Below are positions 23,725-29,992 of a stretch of 64,000 nucleotides of DNA, one piece after another. The translations under genes and the position numbers were made by a program. Under the pieces are notes generated by a model. That model was not told the origin of the DNA. It saw nothing but the letters and a program-made list of their open reading frames with translations, and made no database searches. Source of the stretch: Thermoanaerobaculia bacterium (GTDB lineage: Bacteria; Acidobacteriota; Thermoanaerobaculia; UBA5066); the NCBI GenBank assembly GCA_963816185.1, contig CAWFJJ010000028.1, positions 448,001 to 512,000 of the forward strand, read 5' to 3'. Position 1 is the first letter of the stretch, and the number at the start of each line of letters is the position of its first letter.

Positions 23725-25152
23725 GTGAGCGTACCCCCGTCCCGCAGCCCGGCCCGAAGCGTCTTCGTCGAGACGTGGGGCTGCCAGATGAACGTCCTCG
23801 ACGGGCGGCGCTTCGTCGGACTCCTCGCTCGCGAAGGATTTTCCGAAGCGACATCTCCCGAGGAAGCAGACGTCATCCTCCTGAACACGTGCTCGGTTCG
23901 CGACAAGGCCGAGCAGAAAGTTTACGACCGGCTCGGGCGCCTCGCGAAGATCAAGCGCGAACGCCCGGAAACTGTGCTCGGCGTCTGCGGCTGCGTCGCG
24001 CAGCAGGAAGGGGAGAGGCTCCTCGAACGCCTGTCGCAGGTCGACTTCGTGCTCGGGACGGGACGCATCGAGGCCCTGCCGGCGGTCCTGCGCCGCGTCG
24101 AGGAGGAGGACGACAGGCCCTGCGAGACGGGCTTCGACCCGGACGAGGTCGTCTACACGCCCGCTGCGATCGCACGCTCGGTGCCGTACCGCGCCGCGAT
24201 CACGGTCATCGAGGGCTGCAACAAGAACTGCACGTTCTGCGTCGTTCCGCGCACGCGCGGGCGCGAGCGCAATCGCCGGCTTCGCGACATCGTGGACGAG
24301 TCCCGCCGCCTGCTCGGCGAGGGAGCCCTGGAGATCGAGCTCCTCGGACAGACCGTGAACGCGTTCCGTGATCCGGAAACCGGCGAGGACCTCGCGGACC
24401 TTCTCCGCGCGGTCGGTGCGCTGCCGGGACTTCGGCGCCTGCGCTTCGTGACGTCCCACCCGCGGAATTTCTCCGCCCGCCTCACCGCGGCGATGGCAGA
24501 CACTCCCGCGGTCGTCCCCGCCTTGCACCTGCCGGTCCAGTCCGGCTCCGACGCGGTGCTGCGCCGCATGAAGCGCCAGTACACGCGCGCGGAATATCTC
24601 GACCTCGTGGCGTCGCTTCGCGACGCCATCCCGGACCTTGCGCTCTCGACCGACGTCATCGTGGGCTTCCCGGGCGAGACGGACGACGACTTCGCGGCGA
24701 CGCTCTCTCTGCTCGAAGAGGTGAGATTCGCCGGCGTCTTCTCCTTCACGTATTCGCCTCGGCCCCGAACTGCCGCGCTCCACTGGGAACACGATGTCAC
24801 GCCGGGAAAGGCATCCGGCCGGCTTGCGCGGCTCATGTCCATTCAGCAGGAGATCCAGAGGCAGTTGAACCGCGAGATGGAGGGACGAACGCTGGACGTG
24901 CTCGTCGAGGGTCTCGACAGAAAGAGGCTCTTCAGCTCGGGCCGCTCCCGCTGCAACCGCGTCGTGAACATCGCGGGGGAGTCCGCGCTGCAGCCGGGCA
25001 CTCTCGTGAACGTACGAATCGAGCGGGGATTTCCGAATTCTCTGCTCGGAAGGATTAAGAGAATCGAAGAGAGAGATTTTCTTAGAAAGCCTTCGCATGA
25101 GCGGCCGTCCCAATGCGGCGAGGCCGGTTCGGTTCTCCCGGGCACCTTCTAA
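23725..25152 (+). CDS. miaB: tRNA-i6A37 methylthiotransferase
   Basis: TWGCQMN, NTCSVR.KAE, GCVAQ, radical SAM CNKNCTFC, LHLPVQSGS, TRAM domain. Confidence 0.94.
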   Translation: MSVPPSRSPARSVFVETWGCQMNVLDGRRFVGLLAREGFSEATSPEEADVILLNTCSVRDKAEQKVYDRLGRLAKIKRERPETVLGVCGCVAQQEGERLLERLSQVDFVLGTGRIEALPAVLRRVEEEDDRPCETGFDPDEVVYTPAAIARSVPYRAAITVIEGCNKNCTFCVVPRTRGRERNRRLRDIVDESRRLLGEGALEIELLGQTVNAFRDPETGEDLADLLRAVGALPGLRRLRFVTSHPRNFSARLTAAMADTPAVVPALHLPVQSGSDAVLRRMKRQYTRAEYLDLVASLRDAIPDLALSTDVIVGFPGETDDDFAATLSLLEEVRFAGVFSFTYSPRPRTAALHWEHDVTPGKASGRLARLMSIQQEIQRQLNREMEGRTLDVLVEGLDRKRLFSSGRSRCNRVVNIAGESALQPGTLVNVRIERGFPNSLLGRIKRIEERDFLRKPSHERPSQCGEAGSVLPGTF

Positions 25153-25161
25153 GAAATCCTC
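25071..25161. repeat. Paired-arm motif at the miaB 3' end; supplies the stop codon
   Basis: GAGATTTTCTTAGAAAG (core 25079) ... CACCTTCTAAGAAATCC (core 25147). Confidence 0.85.
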
Positions 25162-25294
25162 GGTTGTCTCCTTCTGGAAATCTCCTGTAATTCGTTCTAA
25201 AACAAGAAGTTAATGGCATGAGAAGGCTCATGGATCAAGGGCTCTTCCTTGCTTTATCCCGGTTTCCTCCCTAGATTGATAACGGAGAAGTCGT

Positions 25295-25780
25295 GTGAGC
25301 ATCAAGATGGACGTGAAAGCGCTGATCGTCGACCCGATCGCAAACATGCCGGTCGTGATCTTGCGCGACGAGGAAGAGAAGAATTTCCTGCCGATCTGGG
25401 TTGGAGTCTTCGAGGCAAACGCCATCGCGCTTCAGATGGAAGGCGTCACCACGCCCCGGCCGATGACTCACGATCTCTTGAAGAATCTCATCATACAGAT
25501 CGAGGGCGACGTGCAGCGAGTCGTCATCAACAGCCTCAAGGAAAACACGTTCTACGCCCAGATCCACCTCAGGGTCGCCAACAAGGACGTCCTCGTCGAC
25601 AGCCGGCCGTCGGATGCGATCGCACTGGCTCTCCGGCTCCAGGCGCCCGTCTTCGTCGAGGAGGCCGTCCTCGAGATGAGCCGGAACGGAGAAGACACCG
25701 CGGAAGCACAGAACGCGGAGCGCCTGAGAAAATGGCTCGAGGAAGCGGATCCGGACACTCTCGGCAAATACAGGATGTGA
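25295..25780 (+). CDS. Bifunctional nuclease family protein (DUF151)
   Basis: LPIWVG.FEA.AI, RPMTHDL, DSRPSDAIALA. Confidence 0.9.
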   Translation: MSIKMDVKALIVDPIANMPVVILRDEEEKNFLPIWVGVFEANAIALQMEGVTTPRPMTHDLLKNLIIQIEGDVQRVVINSLKENTFYAQIHLRVANKDVLVDSRPSDAIALALRLQAPVFVEEAVLEMSRNGEDTAEAQNAERLRKWLEEADPDTLGKYRM

Positions 25781-25852
25781 TTTTCGCCGCGGGACGAACG
25801 ATTCGTCCTTGAAGCCTCCGCGCCCCCTCCGTATCATTCGCGTCGCCGGCGC

Positions 25853-26614
25853 ATGATCATCACTGTTGCAAATCAGAAAGGCGGTGTGGGGAAGACCACG
25901 ACCGCGATCAACCTTGCCGCGGCGCTTGCGCAAAAGGGTCTCCGGACTCTCCTCATCGACCTCGATCCCCAGGGCAACTCGACGATGTCCTTTCTGGATC
26001 GCAAGGACGTGGAAAAGTCGATGTACGAGGTGCTCACGGATCCGAGCGCGTCGTTCTTCGACATCGTCAAAGAGACGAGCGTCCCGAAGCTCACGATCGC
26101 GCCCGCGCGCATCTCGCTCGCGAAGGTGGAGTCGAAGCTCCTCGGTGAGCTCGACGGGCATTTTCGGCTCAAGGACAAGCTTCAGGTCGTGCGAGAATCG
26201 GGAGAGTACGACGCGATCCTCATCGACACACCGCCTACGCTCGGCATGATCACGGTGAACGCGCTCGTCGCCTCGACACACATCCTGATCCCGATTCAAT
26301 CCTCTTATTTCGCACTCGAAGGCACCGACGACCTCCTCGAGACGATCGAGAAGATCAAGAACCGGCCCAATCCGAACCTCCAGATCTTGGGCGTCGTGAT
26401 CACGCTTCACGACAAGCGCACGACGCTCGGAAAAGACATCCAGAGTCAGATCAACCAGGTCTTCAAAGACAAGCTCTTCAAGACGACGATCTCGAAGTCC
26501 ATTCGGCTGGAGGAATCGCCGGCGTATCGAGAATCCATCTTCACATTCGCTCCGCGCTCGTCAGGCGCGCTCGAGTACTACAGCCTGACTGAGGAGATCC
26601 TGTCCCGTGTCTAA
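25853..26614 (+). CDS. parA: ParA/Soj family ATPase
   Basis: NQKGGVGKTTTA deviant Walker A, DLDPQGN, IDTPP.LG, NAL.A. Confidence 0.9.
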   Translation: MIITVANQKGGVGKTTTAINLAAALAQKGLRTLLIDLDPQGNSTMSFLDRKDVEKSMYEVLTDPSASFFDIVKETSVPKLTIAPARISLAKVESKLLGELDGHFRLKDKLQVVRESGEYDAILIDTPPTLGMITVNALVASTHILIPIQSSYFALEGTDDLLETIEKIKNRPNPNLQILGVVITLHDKRTTLGKDIQSQINQVFKDKLFKTTISKSIRLEESPAYRESIFTFAPRSSGALEYYSLTEEILSRV

Positions 26615-27503
26615 GCGCCGCGGTCTGCCGGAAACTTCGCGCATGCGTCACGACTCGCACTTCGTCGAGCAGCTCGTCCGCGCGGACGAGCTGCCGGTCG
26701 GACGTCGCATTCCGATCCACCTCATCGAGGCGAATCCCGATCAGCCGCGCAGCACGATGGGAGACCTTGCGGACCTGACGAGATCGATCGTGGATAAAGG
26801 CGTCCTCGAGCCGATCCTCGTGCGTCCCCGCGGTGACGGACGCTTCACGATCATCTCCGGCGAACGGCGCTTTCGCGCCGCGCTCGACGCGGGTCTCCCG
26901 GAAATTCCGTGCATCGAGATGGACGTCGCCGACAATGAGCTGCTCGAGATCGCGCTCGTCGAGAATCTCCAGCGCAGGGACCTGAGCCCTTTCGAGGAGG
27001 CCGACGGATATAGAGCTCTTCAGGAACGCCACGGATACACGCACGAACAGATCGCAGACGCCGTGGGGAAGTCGCGCGTGACGATCACCGAAGCGCTCTC
27101 CATCGCGCGGCTCCCCGAACGCGTGCAGGTTGAATGTCGGCGCGCCGACATCGGATCGCGGTCCTTCCTCCTCGAGCTCGGAAGACTCAAGGACGAAGAC
27201 CTCATGCTCGCCGCGGTCGTGGCGATGGCGAGCGGTGAGACCTTGAGCCGCGACGTCCTGCGGGAAGCGAAGAAGGACGCGCGCCGCGGCACGAGCTCGA
27301 AGCTAGGCGGAATGAAGAGGGCGTACACACTCGATTTCGCTCCGGAGGACAAGCGCTACAAGGTCAGCCTTGTTCTCAAGGGCCGCCTCCACAAGAAGGA
27401 CGAAATCCTCGAAGCGATCCGCGATGTCGCGCGCCGAATCGAAGCGGGGGACATCGACCTCGAGGCACAGGGTCGATTCGTGAAGGCGAAAGCAAAGAAG
27501 TAG
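26607..27503 (+). CDS. ParB/Spo0J/Noc family CTPase with divergent HTH
   Basis: NPDQPR, GVLEPILVR, SGERRFRA, ALVENLQRRDL, HTH THEQIADAVGKSR. Confidence 0.9.
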   Translation: MSKRRGLPETSRMRHDSHFVEQLVRADELPVGRRIPIHLIEANPDQPRSTMGDLADLTRSIVDKGVLEPILVRPRGDGRFTIISGERRFRAALDAGLPEIPCIEMDVADNELLEIALVENLQRRDLSPFEEADGYRALQERHGYTHEQIADAVGKSRVTITEALSIARLPERVQVECRRADIGSRSFLLELGRLKDEDLMLAAVVAMASGETLSRDVLREAKKDARRGTSSKLGGMKRAYTLDFAPEDKRYKVSLVLKGRLHKKDEILEAIRDVARRIEAGDIDLEAQGRFVKAKAKK

Positions 27504-27589
27504 AGACGCCCGCTCGGAGCGCTCCTCTCCGCGCGCAGGGAAGCCTCCTTCTCGACCGCCCTCATTTCGTTAGGCACGGGCTCTCCAGA

Positions 27590-27617
27590 ATTTAACATAA
27601 TAAATATTATCGGACGT
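27590..27617 (-). other. dif site (XerC/XerD recombination site)
   Basis: Minus strand reads ACGTCCGATAA TATTTA TTATGTTAAAT: an 11-6-11 layout whose right arm equals the E. coli XerD arm. It is a very AT-rich intergenic island in GC-rich DNA. Confidence 0.88.
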
Positions 27618-27688
27618 TGCGCATTGGCGCTGGAATCGGCCCGAAAAGAGCACAAGAGAATCTTCTTCTTCGTCTTACCATCGGTTCC

Positions 27689-29992
27689 GTGTTGCGGCGC
27701 GTGGATCGCTACGTCTTCCGCGAGGTTCTGGCGCCCACGTTCGTGGGCTTCCTCGCGTACACGGGCTTCATGGCCGTCCGGGGTCTCGTGCAGTTCTCGG
27801 AGCTGCTCGTGCAGAGCGAGCAGCCGTTCGTCGAGGCCGGCCTCGTCGTCGCCCTCTCGCTCCCGCACATCGTCGTCCTCACGCTTCCCATCGCGTTTCT
27901 CCTGGGGCTCCTCATCGGAATCGGACGGCTTTCAGCCGACTCCGAGCTGACCGCCCTTCGCGCCTCGGGCGTCGACCTGCTGTCCCTTTACAGACCGATC
28001 GCAATCCTCGCGGTCGCGATCGGCGCCGCGACGCTCGCGCTGATGCTCGGCGTCGTCCCGAGGACGAACCATCTCCTCTATGCGATGAAGCTCCGCCTCT
28101 CCAGCTTCGCGTTCGCCCAGCGCATCCAGCCGGGCGTCTTCAGCCCCGAGATCGCCGGATTCAGGGTTTACGCCGAGGGAGCTTCGCCCGACCGCCGGGA
28201 GCTCACGGGCCTCATCATCTCGGATCGCTCCAGCCCCGAGGGCGAAAGGCTGACGCTCGCAAAGCGAGGCTGGCTGGAGCTGGAGGAGGACCAGGGCCGG
28301 CTCTGGCTGCGCGTCGAGGACGCCGAGACCCATCACATGCAGGCGGGCGGCGCCCGATACGACATCACGTCCTTCTCGGAGCACCGCATGGTCCTCCAGG
28401 ACAACGGCCCGACCGGCGGCGTCACGGAAAAGCAGATCCGCGAGCAAACGCTGCGCGAGCTTCTCGAACGCGCCGCTGCCCGTACACGCCGGCCGGAGGA
28501 CCGCAGGCTCGCGCTCACGGAGGTCCACAAGAAGTTCGCTCTGCCGTCGGCGTGTCTCGTCTTCGGCCTCATCGGGCTGCCCCTCGGCATCGTCAACCGG
28601 CGCGGAGGGCGCGCGGCCGGGTTCGCCGTGTCCGTCGCGATCGTGCTTCTCTACTACGCCCTTCTCGCCACGGGCGAAGCGCGGGCGATCGAAGGCCGAA
28701 TGTCGCCGGCTCTCGCCATGTGGCTGCCAAACCTCATCCTTCTGGCGTTCGGCGCTTTCGCACTCGACCGCGTGCGGCGTGACAAGGAGATCTTCTCCTT
28801 TCCCATGAGCGCCGCCGCACCCGTCGCCGCGACCGCGACGCCGGCGTCCGGCCAGGCGCCCGTGGCCGAAAAGGGCCCGGGCCTCCCGGCCCGACGGGCT
28901 CCGTTTCCGGGCCTTCTCCTCATCGACCGCTACGTCGCACGGCGATTTCTCGGCACATTCGCCCTCGTCGTGACCTCGATCGCGACGCTCTACGTGCTGA
29001 TCGACTACCTCGAGATCTCCGACGACATCGCCCGCCATCGACCCCCGACGACTCTCATCCTGCGTTACTACCAGGCCTTCCTGTCTCCGATCATCCTAGA
29101 CATCGTGCCGTTCGCGTTTCTCGTGGCCGCGCTCGTGACCATCGCGAGCCTCGTACGCTCCGGCGAGACGACCGCACTTCTCGCGCACGGGGTCTCTCTC
29201 TATCGAACCACGGCTCCCCTTCTCGTGCTCGCCGTGGCGGCCGGAGCCGGACTCTTCGTTTTCGCCGAGCGCGTCGTTCCGGCGGCGGCTTCGGAATCCG
29301 ACCGAATCCGGTTCCTGCTCAAGGGACAGAAGCCTCCTCTCAGCGGGGCCGGCGGGGCCTGGTTCCGAGGCGACGGAGGACGCTTTCTCGCGGCGGACGC
29401 ATACGATCCCGCCTCTCGCGTCGCGAGCGGCGTCACGGTGCTTCAAATCGACCCCGCGAGATGGAGGCTCGTCTCACGCCACGACGCGACCCGGGCGCGC
29501 GTCGTGCCGGGCAAGGGCCTTCTCGCGGAAAGCGGTTGGATCCGGACGTTCTCGCCGGGCAACGTTCTGGCCATCCGGCGCGACGATCCGTTTTTGATCG
29601 AGGCGCCGGAGGCCGCCGCCGGCTTTGCCGCCGGACGGGCCGACCCGCGTCAAATGACGTTCCGTGAGCTCTCGCACTTCATCGACGTCCGTCGCAGGGC
29701 CGGGGCCGACACGGCGGCTCTTGCGACGGGTCTCCACCAGAAGACCGCGGTGGCGGCGTCCTCTCTTCTTCTCACGCTCATCGGACTCCCCTTCGCGTTC
29801 GCGTACGGAAAGCGCGGGGCCGTGGCGGGAGTCGGCGTCGCGCTTTTCCTCGGCCTGACGTATCTGTTCCTCTCCGCGCTTCTCGTCTCGTTCGGGCAGC
29901 AGGGCGCGATCCCGCCTTTCCTCGCTGCATGGGCCCCGAACATCTTCTTCGGTCTCGGCGCAGCGTGGGGATTGCTTGGAGTGAGAACGTAG
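27689..29992 (+). CDS. Fused LptF-LptG LPS export permease
   Basis: Two YjgP/YjgQ units, each beginning DRYV, with RLSADSELTALRASG and RSGETTALLAHG, and each ending AMWLPN / AAWAPN. Confidence 0.88.
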   Translation: MLRRVDRYVFREVLAPTFVGFLAYTGFMAVRGLVQFSELLVQSEQPFVEAGLVVALSLPHIVVLTLPIAFLLGLLIGIGRLSADSELTALRASGVDLLSLYRPIAILAVAIGAATLALMLGVVPRTNHLLYAMKLRLSSFAFAQRIQPGVFSPEIAGFRVYAEGASPDRRELTGLIISDRSSPEGERLTLAKRGWLELEEDQGRLWLRVEDAETHHMQAGGARYDITSFSEHRMVLQDNGPTGGVTEKQIREQTLRELLERAAARTRRPEDRRLALTEVHKKFALPSACLVFGLIGLPLGIVNRRGGRAAGFAVSVAIVLLYYALLATGEARAIEGRMSPALAMWLPNLILLAFGAFALDRVRRDKEIFSFPMSAAAPVAATATPASGQAPVAEKGPGLPARRAPFPGLLLIDRYVARRFLGTFALVVTSIATLYVLIDYLEISDDIARHRPPTTLILRYYQAFLSPIILDIVPFAFLVAALVTIASLVRSGETTALLAHGVSLYRTTAPLLVLAVAAGAGLFVFAERVVPAAASESDRIRFLLKGQKPPLSGAGGAWFRGDGGRFLAADAYDPASRVASGVTVLQIDPARWRLVSRHDATRARVVPGKGLLAESGWIRTFSPGNVLAIRRDDPFLIEAPEAAAGFAAGRADPRQMTFRELSHFIDVRRRAGADTAALATGLHQKTAVAASSLLLTLIGLPFAFAYGKRGAVAGVGVALFLGLTYLFLSALLVSFGQQGAIPPFLAAWAPNIFFGLGAAWGLLGVRT

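Follow-up and report, generated by a model that had tools for sequence, protein, structure and literature searches.

What is a complete parA-parB pair, of the kind that serves the replication origin, doing directly beside dif, the site at which chromosome dimers are resolved? The question is raised by a stretch of 64,000 nucleotides from a Thermoanaerobaculia bacterium (G000:C28:448001-512000, here called the window; assembly G000 is 5.09 Mb in 30 contigs and 94.9% complete), in which the genes that we name parA2 and parB2 overlap by 8 bp and parB2 ends 86 bp before dif. From what we observed, namely which genes are present, that they lie at the terminus and are conserved, and that a palindrome exists, is unique in G000 and co-occurs with ParB2, we consider it probable, though well short of certain, that parA2, parB2 and the 16-bp palindrome TGTCGGCGCGCCGACA make up a second ParABS-type system that is located at the terminus and is distinct from the origin-proximal parA1-parB1-parS.

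The same genome has a canonical system at its origin. On contig C29 the gene order is recF-dnaN-dnaA-yidC-mnmE-mnmG-rsmG-parA1-parB1, and 8 kb separate dnaA from parA1-parB1, which has a perfect parS. The recognition helix of ParB1 is canonical (GKDRTTVANALRLL), and a perfect TGTTTCACGTGAAACA stands directly ahead of parA1; the sole other near-copy in the whole of G000 is on contig C25. The pair beside dif is therefore a second ParAB, as the initial annotation had supposed. It does not have the canonical parS (TGTTNCACGTGAAACA) as its site, since genomic copies of that sequence are found only at parA1 and on C25, and the best match in the window has three mismatches.

Several lines of evidence place parA2-parB2 at the replication terminus and not near the replication origin, again in agreement with that annotation. 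The cumulative GC skew bottoms out at the dnaA region of C29; on C28 it peaks at 400 to 470 kb and declines steadily beyond 500 kb. Ten strand-skewed 8-mers were trained outside 380 to 520 kb of C28, with that zone held out. Counted there in 10-kb bins, they are commoner on the plus strand in every one of the nine bins between 380 and 470 kb, and on the minus strand in the four between 470 and 510 kb. They switch strand at ~467 to 475 kb, with a cumulative maximum at contig position 467,143, and dif is at 475,590. The genes follow the same pattern: the Pfam-supported genes accA, recJ, lptB, rpoN, hprK, rapZ, ptsI, miaB, BFN (the gene for a bifunctional nuclease domain), parA2 and parB2 are on the plus strand to the left of dif, while ahcY, metK and dnaE, past lptFG on its right, are on the minus strand. 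Housekeeping genes thus converge on dif, and the region does not have the look of a mobile element. In 10 of 10 single-contig genomes the distance between parB2 and dnaA is 42 to 58% of the chromosome, and in the five of these with exact lengths it is 47 to 53%.

The site that we call dif lies at the skew switch and has two 11-bp arms separated by a 6-bp spacer. It is the only dif-like site that a pattern search detected in the 5.09-Mb assembly, and it is almost invariant in sequence within the genus. Elsewhere G000 encodes XerD, another Xer recombinase, and an FtsK that has a gamma domain. Judged from its sequence, its uniqueness, its position at the skew switch and the presence of the recombinases and FtsK, this 28-bp site is a dif site for XerCD, and its sequence resembles E. 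coli dif.

ParA2 and ParB2 are both recognizable as members of chromosomal partition protein families. ParA2 shares 42% of its residues with ParA1, and chromosomal ParA/Soj proteins are its nearest relatives of solved structure. This cognate ParA is encoded beside parB2 with an intact deviant Walker A motif (KGGVGKTT). ParB2 has the ParB N-terminal domain with the GERRxR box and a central helix-turn-helix domain in which GKSR is kept; the NCBIfam model parB_part matches it at 141 bits (cut-off 58), and the noc model, at 142 bits, falls below its cut-off of 315. An AlphaFold2 model (mean pLDDT 80.6) shows the usual domain order with a disordered N-terminal peptide and a C-terminal strand-strand-helix unit at residues 240 to 280. 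The predicted complex of two ParB2 C-terminal parts (residues 205 to 298) scored 0.34, against a mark of 0.42, a value that speaks neither for nor against self-association. The nearest ESM Atlas clusters of ParB2 are Acidobacteriota ParB proteins.

In a tree of 34 ParB2 proteins (14 taken at genus, order and class level and the rest from alternate members of the 40 phylum loci) and 21 canonical ParBs (ParB1 plus 20 of 37 non-ParB2 matches), ParB2 is a separate clade on one side of a long branch with an SH-aLRT support of 100, and within it the tree broadly tracks family groupings. Invariant in all 34 are G6, L7 and P8 of the N-terminal peptide (SKRRGLP..MRHDSHFV), H18, GERR, ENxxR, R157, and T161-E162. 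The last two residues bear out the earlier claim that the recognition helix (GKSRVTITEALSI) is deviant, with Glu and Ser in place of the conserved Asn and Arg. When ParB2 is aligned to Caulobacter ParB, G170, K171, S172 and R173 are kept, A177-N178 is replaced by Thr-Glu, and Ser is at the position of the canonical R181. The passages on residue contacts in a study of ParB and Noc (PMC7383237) describe N178 as contacting DNA and as conserved in both proteins. The changes at 177 and 178 are therefore not those that make Noc.

This pair is conserved far beyond the genus. All 41 of the 41 relatives compared, which where public carry the labels Acidobacteriota or Thermoanaerobaculia, encode a ParB2 orthologue and a separate canonical ParB. 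(The unpublished genomes G025, G030, G155 and G309 are part of these and the following counts, and none of the claims rests on those four alone.) ParB2 is present in 150 of 151 class genomes at E ≤ 1e-40. Across the phylum, 122 of 201 genomes match at E ≤ 1e-36, a number that becomes 118 because four matches (family f35, core-only) are canonical ParB. Its partner is retained as well: parA2 adjoins parB2 in 86 of 90 orthologous loci, with 52 to 97% identity.

The linkage to dif is conserved as well. The site follows parB2 in 29 of 30 loci from the genus and the sister family; the remaining locus runs into a contig edge. Among the 88 class genomes with a match to the dif pattern, dif follows parB2 on the same contig at a distance below 7 kb in 81 and below 1.5 kb in 73. 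Four of the seven misses are on other contigs of fragmented assemblies, one has no ParB2 match, one has dif 22 kb away, and one is a doubtful match. In 20 class loci, which were chosen for dif adjacency, BFN is upstream in 20, miaB is upstream in 18, lptFG is downstream in 19, and parA2 is present in 18. In 40 phylum loci, one or a few per family and chosen irrespective of dif, 38 have parA2, 30 have BFN, and 21 have a dif-like site no farther than 1.5 kb away. The DUF151-parA-parB-dif synteny, whose conservation the initial annotation had proposed to check, is thus kept in the class and in much of the phylum. Such a fixed gene neighborhood for dif is unusual. The gene order miaB-BFN-(parA2-parB2)-dif-lptFG (23725-29992 in the window; loci L038-L057 and L138-L181) is kept across the phylum.

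A screen for near-palindromes common to the orthologous loci yielded TGTCGGC-NN-GCCGACA, a sequence for which the literature that we searched holds no match. G000 has one perfect copy, inside parB2, no copy with one mismatch anywhere in the genome, and 30 scattered copies with two mismatches, three of which are within 25 kb of dif where ~0.3 would be expected. With at most one mismatch, the palindrome is present in 33 of the 40 phylum loci: inside parB2 in 18, upstream of parA2 in 8, and at or after the 3' end of parB2 in 8 (L154 is counted twice). Where it is inside parB2 it occupies Cys-Arg-x-Ala-Asp codons, and these read TGT CGG NNN GCC GAC in 40 of 40 orthologues with an in-gene palindrome. 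In the other 31 orthologues the residues vary, and the Cys codon is TGC in 17, TGT in 4 and absent in 10. The shifts of position, together with synonymous codons that are frozen only where the palindrome is in the gene, indicate selection on the DNA and not on the protein.

The palindrome also occurs in the same genomes as ParB2. A perfect copy is found in 87 of 201 phylum genomes, of which 86 are ParB2 positive; split by the presence of ParB2, this is 86 of 118 ParB2-positive and 1 of 83 ParB2-negative genomes. A reversed control pattern is found in 5 of the 201. The copies cluster in the terminus region. In 58 of the 61 genomes with listed sites (26 further genomes were not listed), a perfect copy lies within 55 kb of parB2. 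Five single-contig genomes that have parA2 contain exactly one perfect copy each, 0 to 231 kb from parB2. G270 has five, at 875 to 1005 kb around a parB2 at 928 kb in a chromosome of 6.49 Mb, and G316 has four within 53 kb. Many distant copies are inside long, unrelated frames with coding-type codon GC, and some intergenic copies extend to GA...TC. A palindromic site near the genes that co-occurs with the ParB is what a centromere would look like, and we regard the palindrome as the candidate site of ParB2.

By analogy with known ParABS systems, ParB2 would be a CTP-dependent clamp-type ParB, with Thr-Glu in its recognition helix where canonical ParB has Ala-Asn. It would bind and load at the palindrome in its own gene and spread over neighboring DNA, including dif 439 bp away, and its N-terminal peptide (RRGLP...MRHDxHF) would activate ParA2 as a nucleoid-bound ATPase. 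ParA2 would then hold the single terminus complex at mid-nucleoid, where the cell will later divide, and after replication of the terminus it would part the two copies in step with FtsK and XerCD at dif.

The assignment of this peptide to ParA2 draws on the few lineages that have no parA2. Four loci lack the gene (two in family f14, one each in f39 and f24), and these are exactly the four whose ParB2 lacks the RRGLP...MRHDxHF peptide among 71 listed orthologues; the other 67 have both. The fact that peptide and parA2 are lost together points to the peptide as the ParA2 contact. Family f14 also differs in its sites. Five single-contig f14 genomes (G095, G063, G060, G131 and G103) have 12, 9, 9, 11 and 5 sites with at most one mismatch, mostly with the core GTCGGCCGGCCGAC, and the control pattern occurs 0 to 2 times per genome. 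Of these 46 sites, 37 are within 0.5 Mb of parB2, which lies 42 to 53% of the chromosome from dnaA. Loss of parA2 and the N-terminal peptide therefore coincides with an increased number of near-palindrome sites over ~1 Mb around dif, a layout that resembles matS more than parS. The annotation had drawn an analogy to MatP/matS. The analogy gains some support from these near-sites and is still to be read as conjecture, and the repeat that had been proposed as its site (see below) has dropped out of it.

The f14 genomes also speak for the main rival, in which ParB2 is a MatP-like organizer of the terminus: it would condense, bridge or anchor the terminus domain, or else unload SMC or act as a gate for FtsK/XerCD at dif, with ParA2 as an accessory regulator. 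ParB2 stays beside dif in this family although parA2 is gone, its genomes have the 5 to 12 sites just described, sites are often intragenic, and MatP (PF06303) was not found in G000, an assembly that is 94.9% complete. As the primary role of the system we nevertheless think this unlikely. Most lineages keep parA2 tightly linked, at 86 of 90 loci, and with it the peptide that goes when parA2 goes, and the 1 to 5 sites beside the operon in these lineages are the layout of a centromere and not of a domain. An organizing role may be a derived state in f14, and it is compatible with partition.

Some observations weigh against a terminus partition system. ParB2 remains beside dif without ParA2 in f14, which indicates that part of its role needs no partition ATPase. 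Thirty-two of the 118 ParB2-positive genomes have no perfect palindrome, some of them having variants with one mismatch, and in one family the nearest palindrome is 22 to 231 kb from parB2. In two of four ParB2-negative genomes a dif-like site still follows the BFN gene, with miaB-BFN-dif adjacency and no parAB2. The neighborhood of the terminus is thus conserved independently of parAB2, which ParB2-negative genomes may have lost, and the linkage to dif may partly reflect a frozen neighborhood instead of selection for proximity between parAB2 and dif. Finally, related genomes are non-independent samples, so that the co-occurrence counts overstate independence.

We also considered whether the palindrome is nothing but an autoregulatory operator, with ParB2 or ParA2 acting as transcription factor for its own operon. 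The 8 phylum loci (of 40) and 3 class loci (of 20) in which the palindrome precedes parA2, or parB2 if parA2 is missing, by 46 to 757 bp would suit such a role. The placement inside or after parB2 in most loci would not, nor would palindromes 22 to 231 kb away or in several copies over 53 to 130 kb in some genomes, or those within unrelated genes, which are frequent, and ParA2 has no extra DNA-binding domain. This explanation is improbable. Even less probable is that parA2-parB2 is the relic of a plasmid or of a dif-integrating element, with no chromosomal role. The site dif is a known integration target, and the GC content falls to 62% at 24 to 28 kb of the window, against ~68% around it. However, dif is single, with no second dif flanking parA2-parB2, the neighbors are housekeeping genes, and the same synteny is found phylum-wide with a ParB2 tree that broadly follows families. 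Plasmid ParB proteins are at most 46% identical to ParB2 among the best 12 of 3894 matching records, and all 3894 are below 60%.

The remaining candidate for the ParB2 site was the sequence TTCTTAGAA (consensus about gatTTCTTAGAAggtgaagaggg). The window has nine copies, all between 23493 and 35814, where shuffles predict 0.06. It tends to occur in convergent pairs around variable GC-rich cores, with 16 of 63 pairs 74 to 76 nt apart; folding of one pair gave an unremarkable z-score of -1.33, and the repeat has no Rfam match. The proposal of the initial annotation that ParB2 binds these paired arms as Noc-like or matS-like sites flanking dif is scarcely credible, for although no denser cluster exists in the genome than the nine copies in 12.4 kb around dif, almost every large contig has copies, 337 in all, clusters of 7 to 8 occur elsewhere, and the DNA-reading residues of ParB2 are invariant across the phylum while the sequence, found in most genus loci, is in 0 of 6 next-family, 0 of 20 class and 2 of 40 phylum loci, all of which encode ParB2. 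The co-occurrence with ParB2 that had been expected is therefore missing. The number of copies, the clusters elsewhere and the limitation to the genus speak against this site, and we conclude that TTCTTAGAA is a dispersed repeat, largely limited to this genus.

The features of the locus are listed in Table 1. Those that had been read directly from the sequence were recovered: the distance of less than 90 bp between the parB stop and dif, the intact Walker A motif, the GERR box, taken to be that of a cytidine triphosphate (CTP) hydrolase, and the lack of a good parS in the window. The DUF151 gene is a conserved upstream neighbor of parA2 and no more than a possible member of the ParAB2 system.

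Table 1. Features of the parA2-parB2-dif locus, in window coordinates
Feature	Position	Strand	Description
BFN (DUF151) gene	25295..25780	+	Bifunctional-nuclease-domain gene; Pfam BFN_dom, E 6e-42
parA2	25853..26614	+	Soj-type ParA ATPase, 253 amino acids; Pfam AAA_31, E 1e-56
Deviant Walker A of parA2	25877-25900	+	Encodes KGGVGKTT
parB2	26607..27503	+	Full-length ParB paralogue, 298 amino acids; ParB_N (PF02195), E 1e-25; HTH_ParB (PF17762), E 3e-14
GERR box of parB2	26859-26870	+	
Recognition helix of parB2	27066-27104	+	GKSRVTITEALSI, in the helix-turn-helix domain
Candidate parS2	27135..27150	.	Perfect 16-bp palindrome TGTCGGCGCGCCGACA inside parB2; codons Cys-Arg-Arg-Ala-Asp
dif	27590..27617	-	28-bp XerC/XerD-type chromosome dimer resolution site; minus-strand sequence ACGTCCGATAATATTTATTATGTTAAAT

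The surroundings of these features show some further regularities. GC content dips to 62% over 24001-28000 (the 3' end of miaB through BFN, parA2, parB2 and dif) and is 65 to 70% in the remaining window. From 27617 to 29992, LptF and LptG are fused as one 791-amino-acid frame with two LptF_LptG domains. Alignment suggests that the true start of lptFG is the GTG at 27689, in which case lptFG does not overlap dif. Two short blocks conserved in the genus lie on either side of dif (27541-27640; loci L009-L030), the first an AT-rich CCTnAT...AGGC ~30 to 45 nt ahead of it and the second TTGCGnATTGGC directly after it; possible readings are accessory sequences and the promoter of lptFG. A search for exact k-mers enriched around dif turned up no site, its yield being limited to coding repeats (a tandem repeat of pentapeptide type and a propeller motif), and Rfam at gathering thresholds returned no family over 20 to 38 kb of the window. 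Just beyond the window, at G000:C28:515331-515540, is a tandem 15-bp repeat, CCCGACATCACGAAC, which probably codes for a pentapeptide-type repeat protein. Soil metatranscriptome contigs from relatives, 90 to 99% alike (three runs of one study), extend over the BFN gene, parA2 and the beginning of parB2; they come from RNA libraries, where DNA carry-over is possible, and nothing follows from the parts left uncovered.

How the terminus is positioned, held, separated and linked to division is largely open outside the enterobacteria. MinC was not found in G000, and MinC (PF03775) is present in only 1 of 201 phylum genomes, so that placement of the division site in this phylum seems not to use Min; since it is missing from the other 200 whether or not they have ParB2, it does not discriminate between them. 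The search listings and abstract openings that we covered describe no terminus-located ParABS, no dif-adjacent ParB and no instance of this system in Acidobacteria, and the matched passages of a survey of the ParB-CTPase fold (PMC12704722) do not mention Acidobacteria or a terminus ParB. It is conceivable, if somewhat less than an even chance, that the Acidobacteriota have a dedicated terminus centromere, the first ParABS that positions and separates the terminus and dif through a parS of its own, along with a ParA2-less lineage whose ParB has turned into a multi-site, matS-like organizer of a domain of ~1 Mb. If this is true, a ParB clamp and a ParA motor at dif would be a new solution to the problem in a major soil phylum that lacks MinC, and one that lends itself to direct testing, with a 16-bp site that is defined, a pair of proteins, and natural variants that either have or lack ParA2. 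Our results suggest that bacteria can put partition machinery, which usually serves the origin, to active use at the chromosome terminus.

Compared with origin ParABS systems (Soj/ParA, Spo0J/ParB and parS), the second system has the same protein families and domain order, the GERR box, the GKSR motif, the deviant Walker A, overlapping parA and parB, and a 16-bp palindrome with outer TGT...ACA in or beside parB. It differs in lying at the terminus beside dif and not by oriC, on a chromosome that it shares with a canonical system. The inner half-site is CGGC instead of TTCAC, the ParB2 helix has Thr-Glu for Ala-Asn and Ser at the position of the helix Arg, and the N-terminal peptide is RRGLP..MRHDxHF instead of LGxGLxAL. 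Secondary replicons such as Vibrio chromosome 2 and those of Burkholderia also have a second ParAB with its own parS variant, which avoids cross-talk. Those systems are by the origin of a separate replicon, whereas in all 10 single-contig genomes ParAB2 and dnaA are on opposite sides of one and the same chromosome.

With MatP/matS of enterobacteria, the system shares a sequence-specific marking of the terminus around dif, here by candidate sites, and in the parA2-less family it also shares a spread of ~5 to 12 near-sites over roughly 1 Mb. The fold of ParB2 is unrelated to that of MatP, and most ParB2 lineages have 1 to 5 sites and a ParA ATPase. Noc, whose sites are spread over the chromosome except at the terminus, has no ParA partner, unlike ParB2. 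Like Noc with its NBS sites in Bacillota, ParB2 is a ParB paralogue whose specificity appears to have been changed through residues of the helix-turn-helix domain (PMC7383237, in its passages on specificity residues). According to the same passages, the substitutions in Noc are at positions 173 and 201, with N178 retained. In ParB2, R173 is retained and the substitutions are at 177 and 178. ParB2 would thus be a natural case of a change in ParB specificity at residues other than those that separate ParB from Noc.

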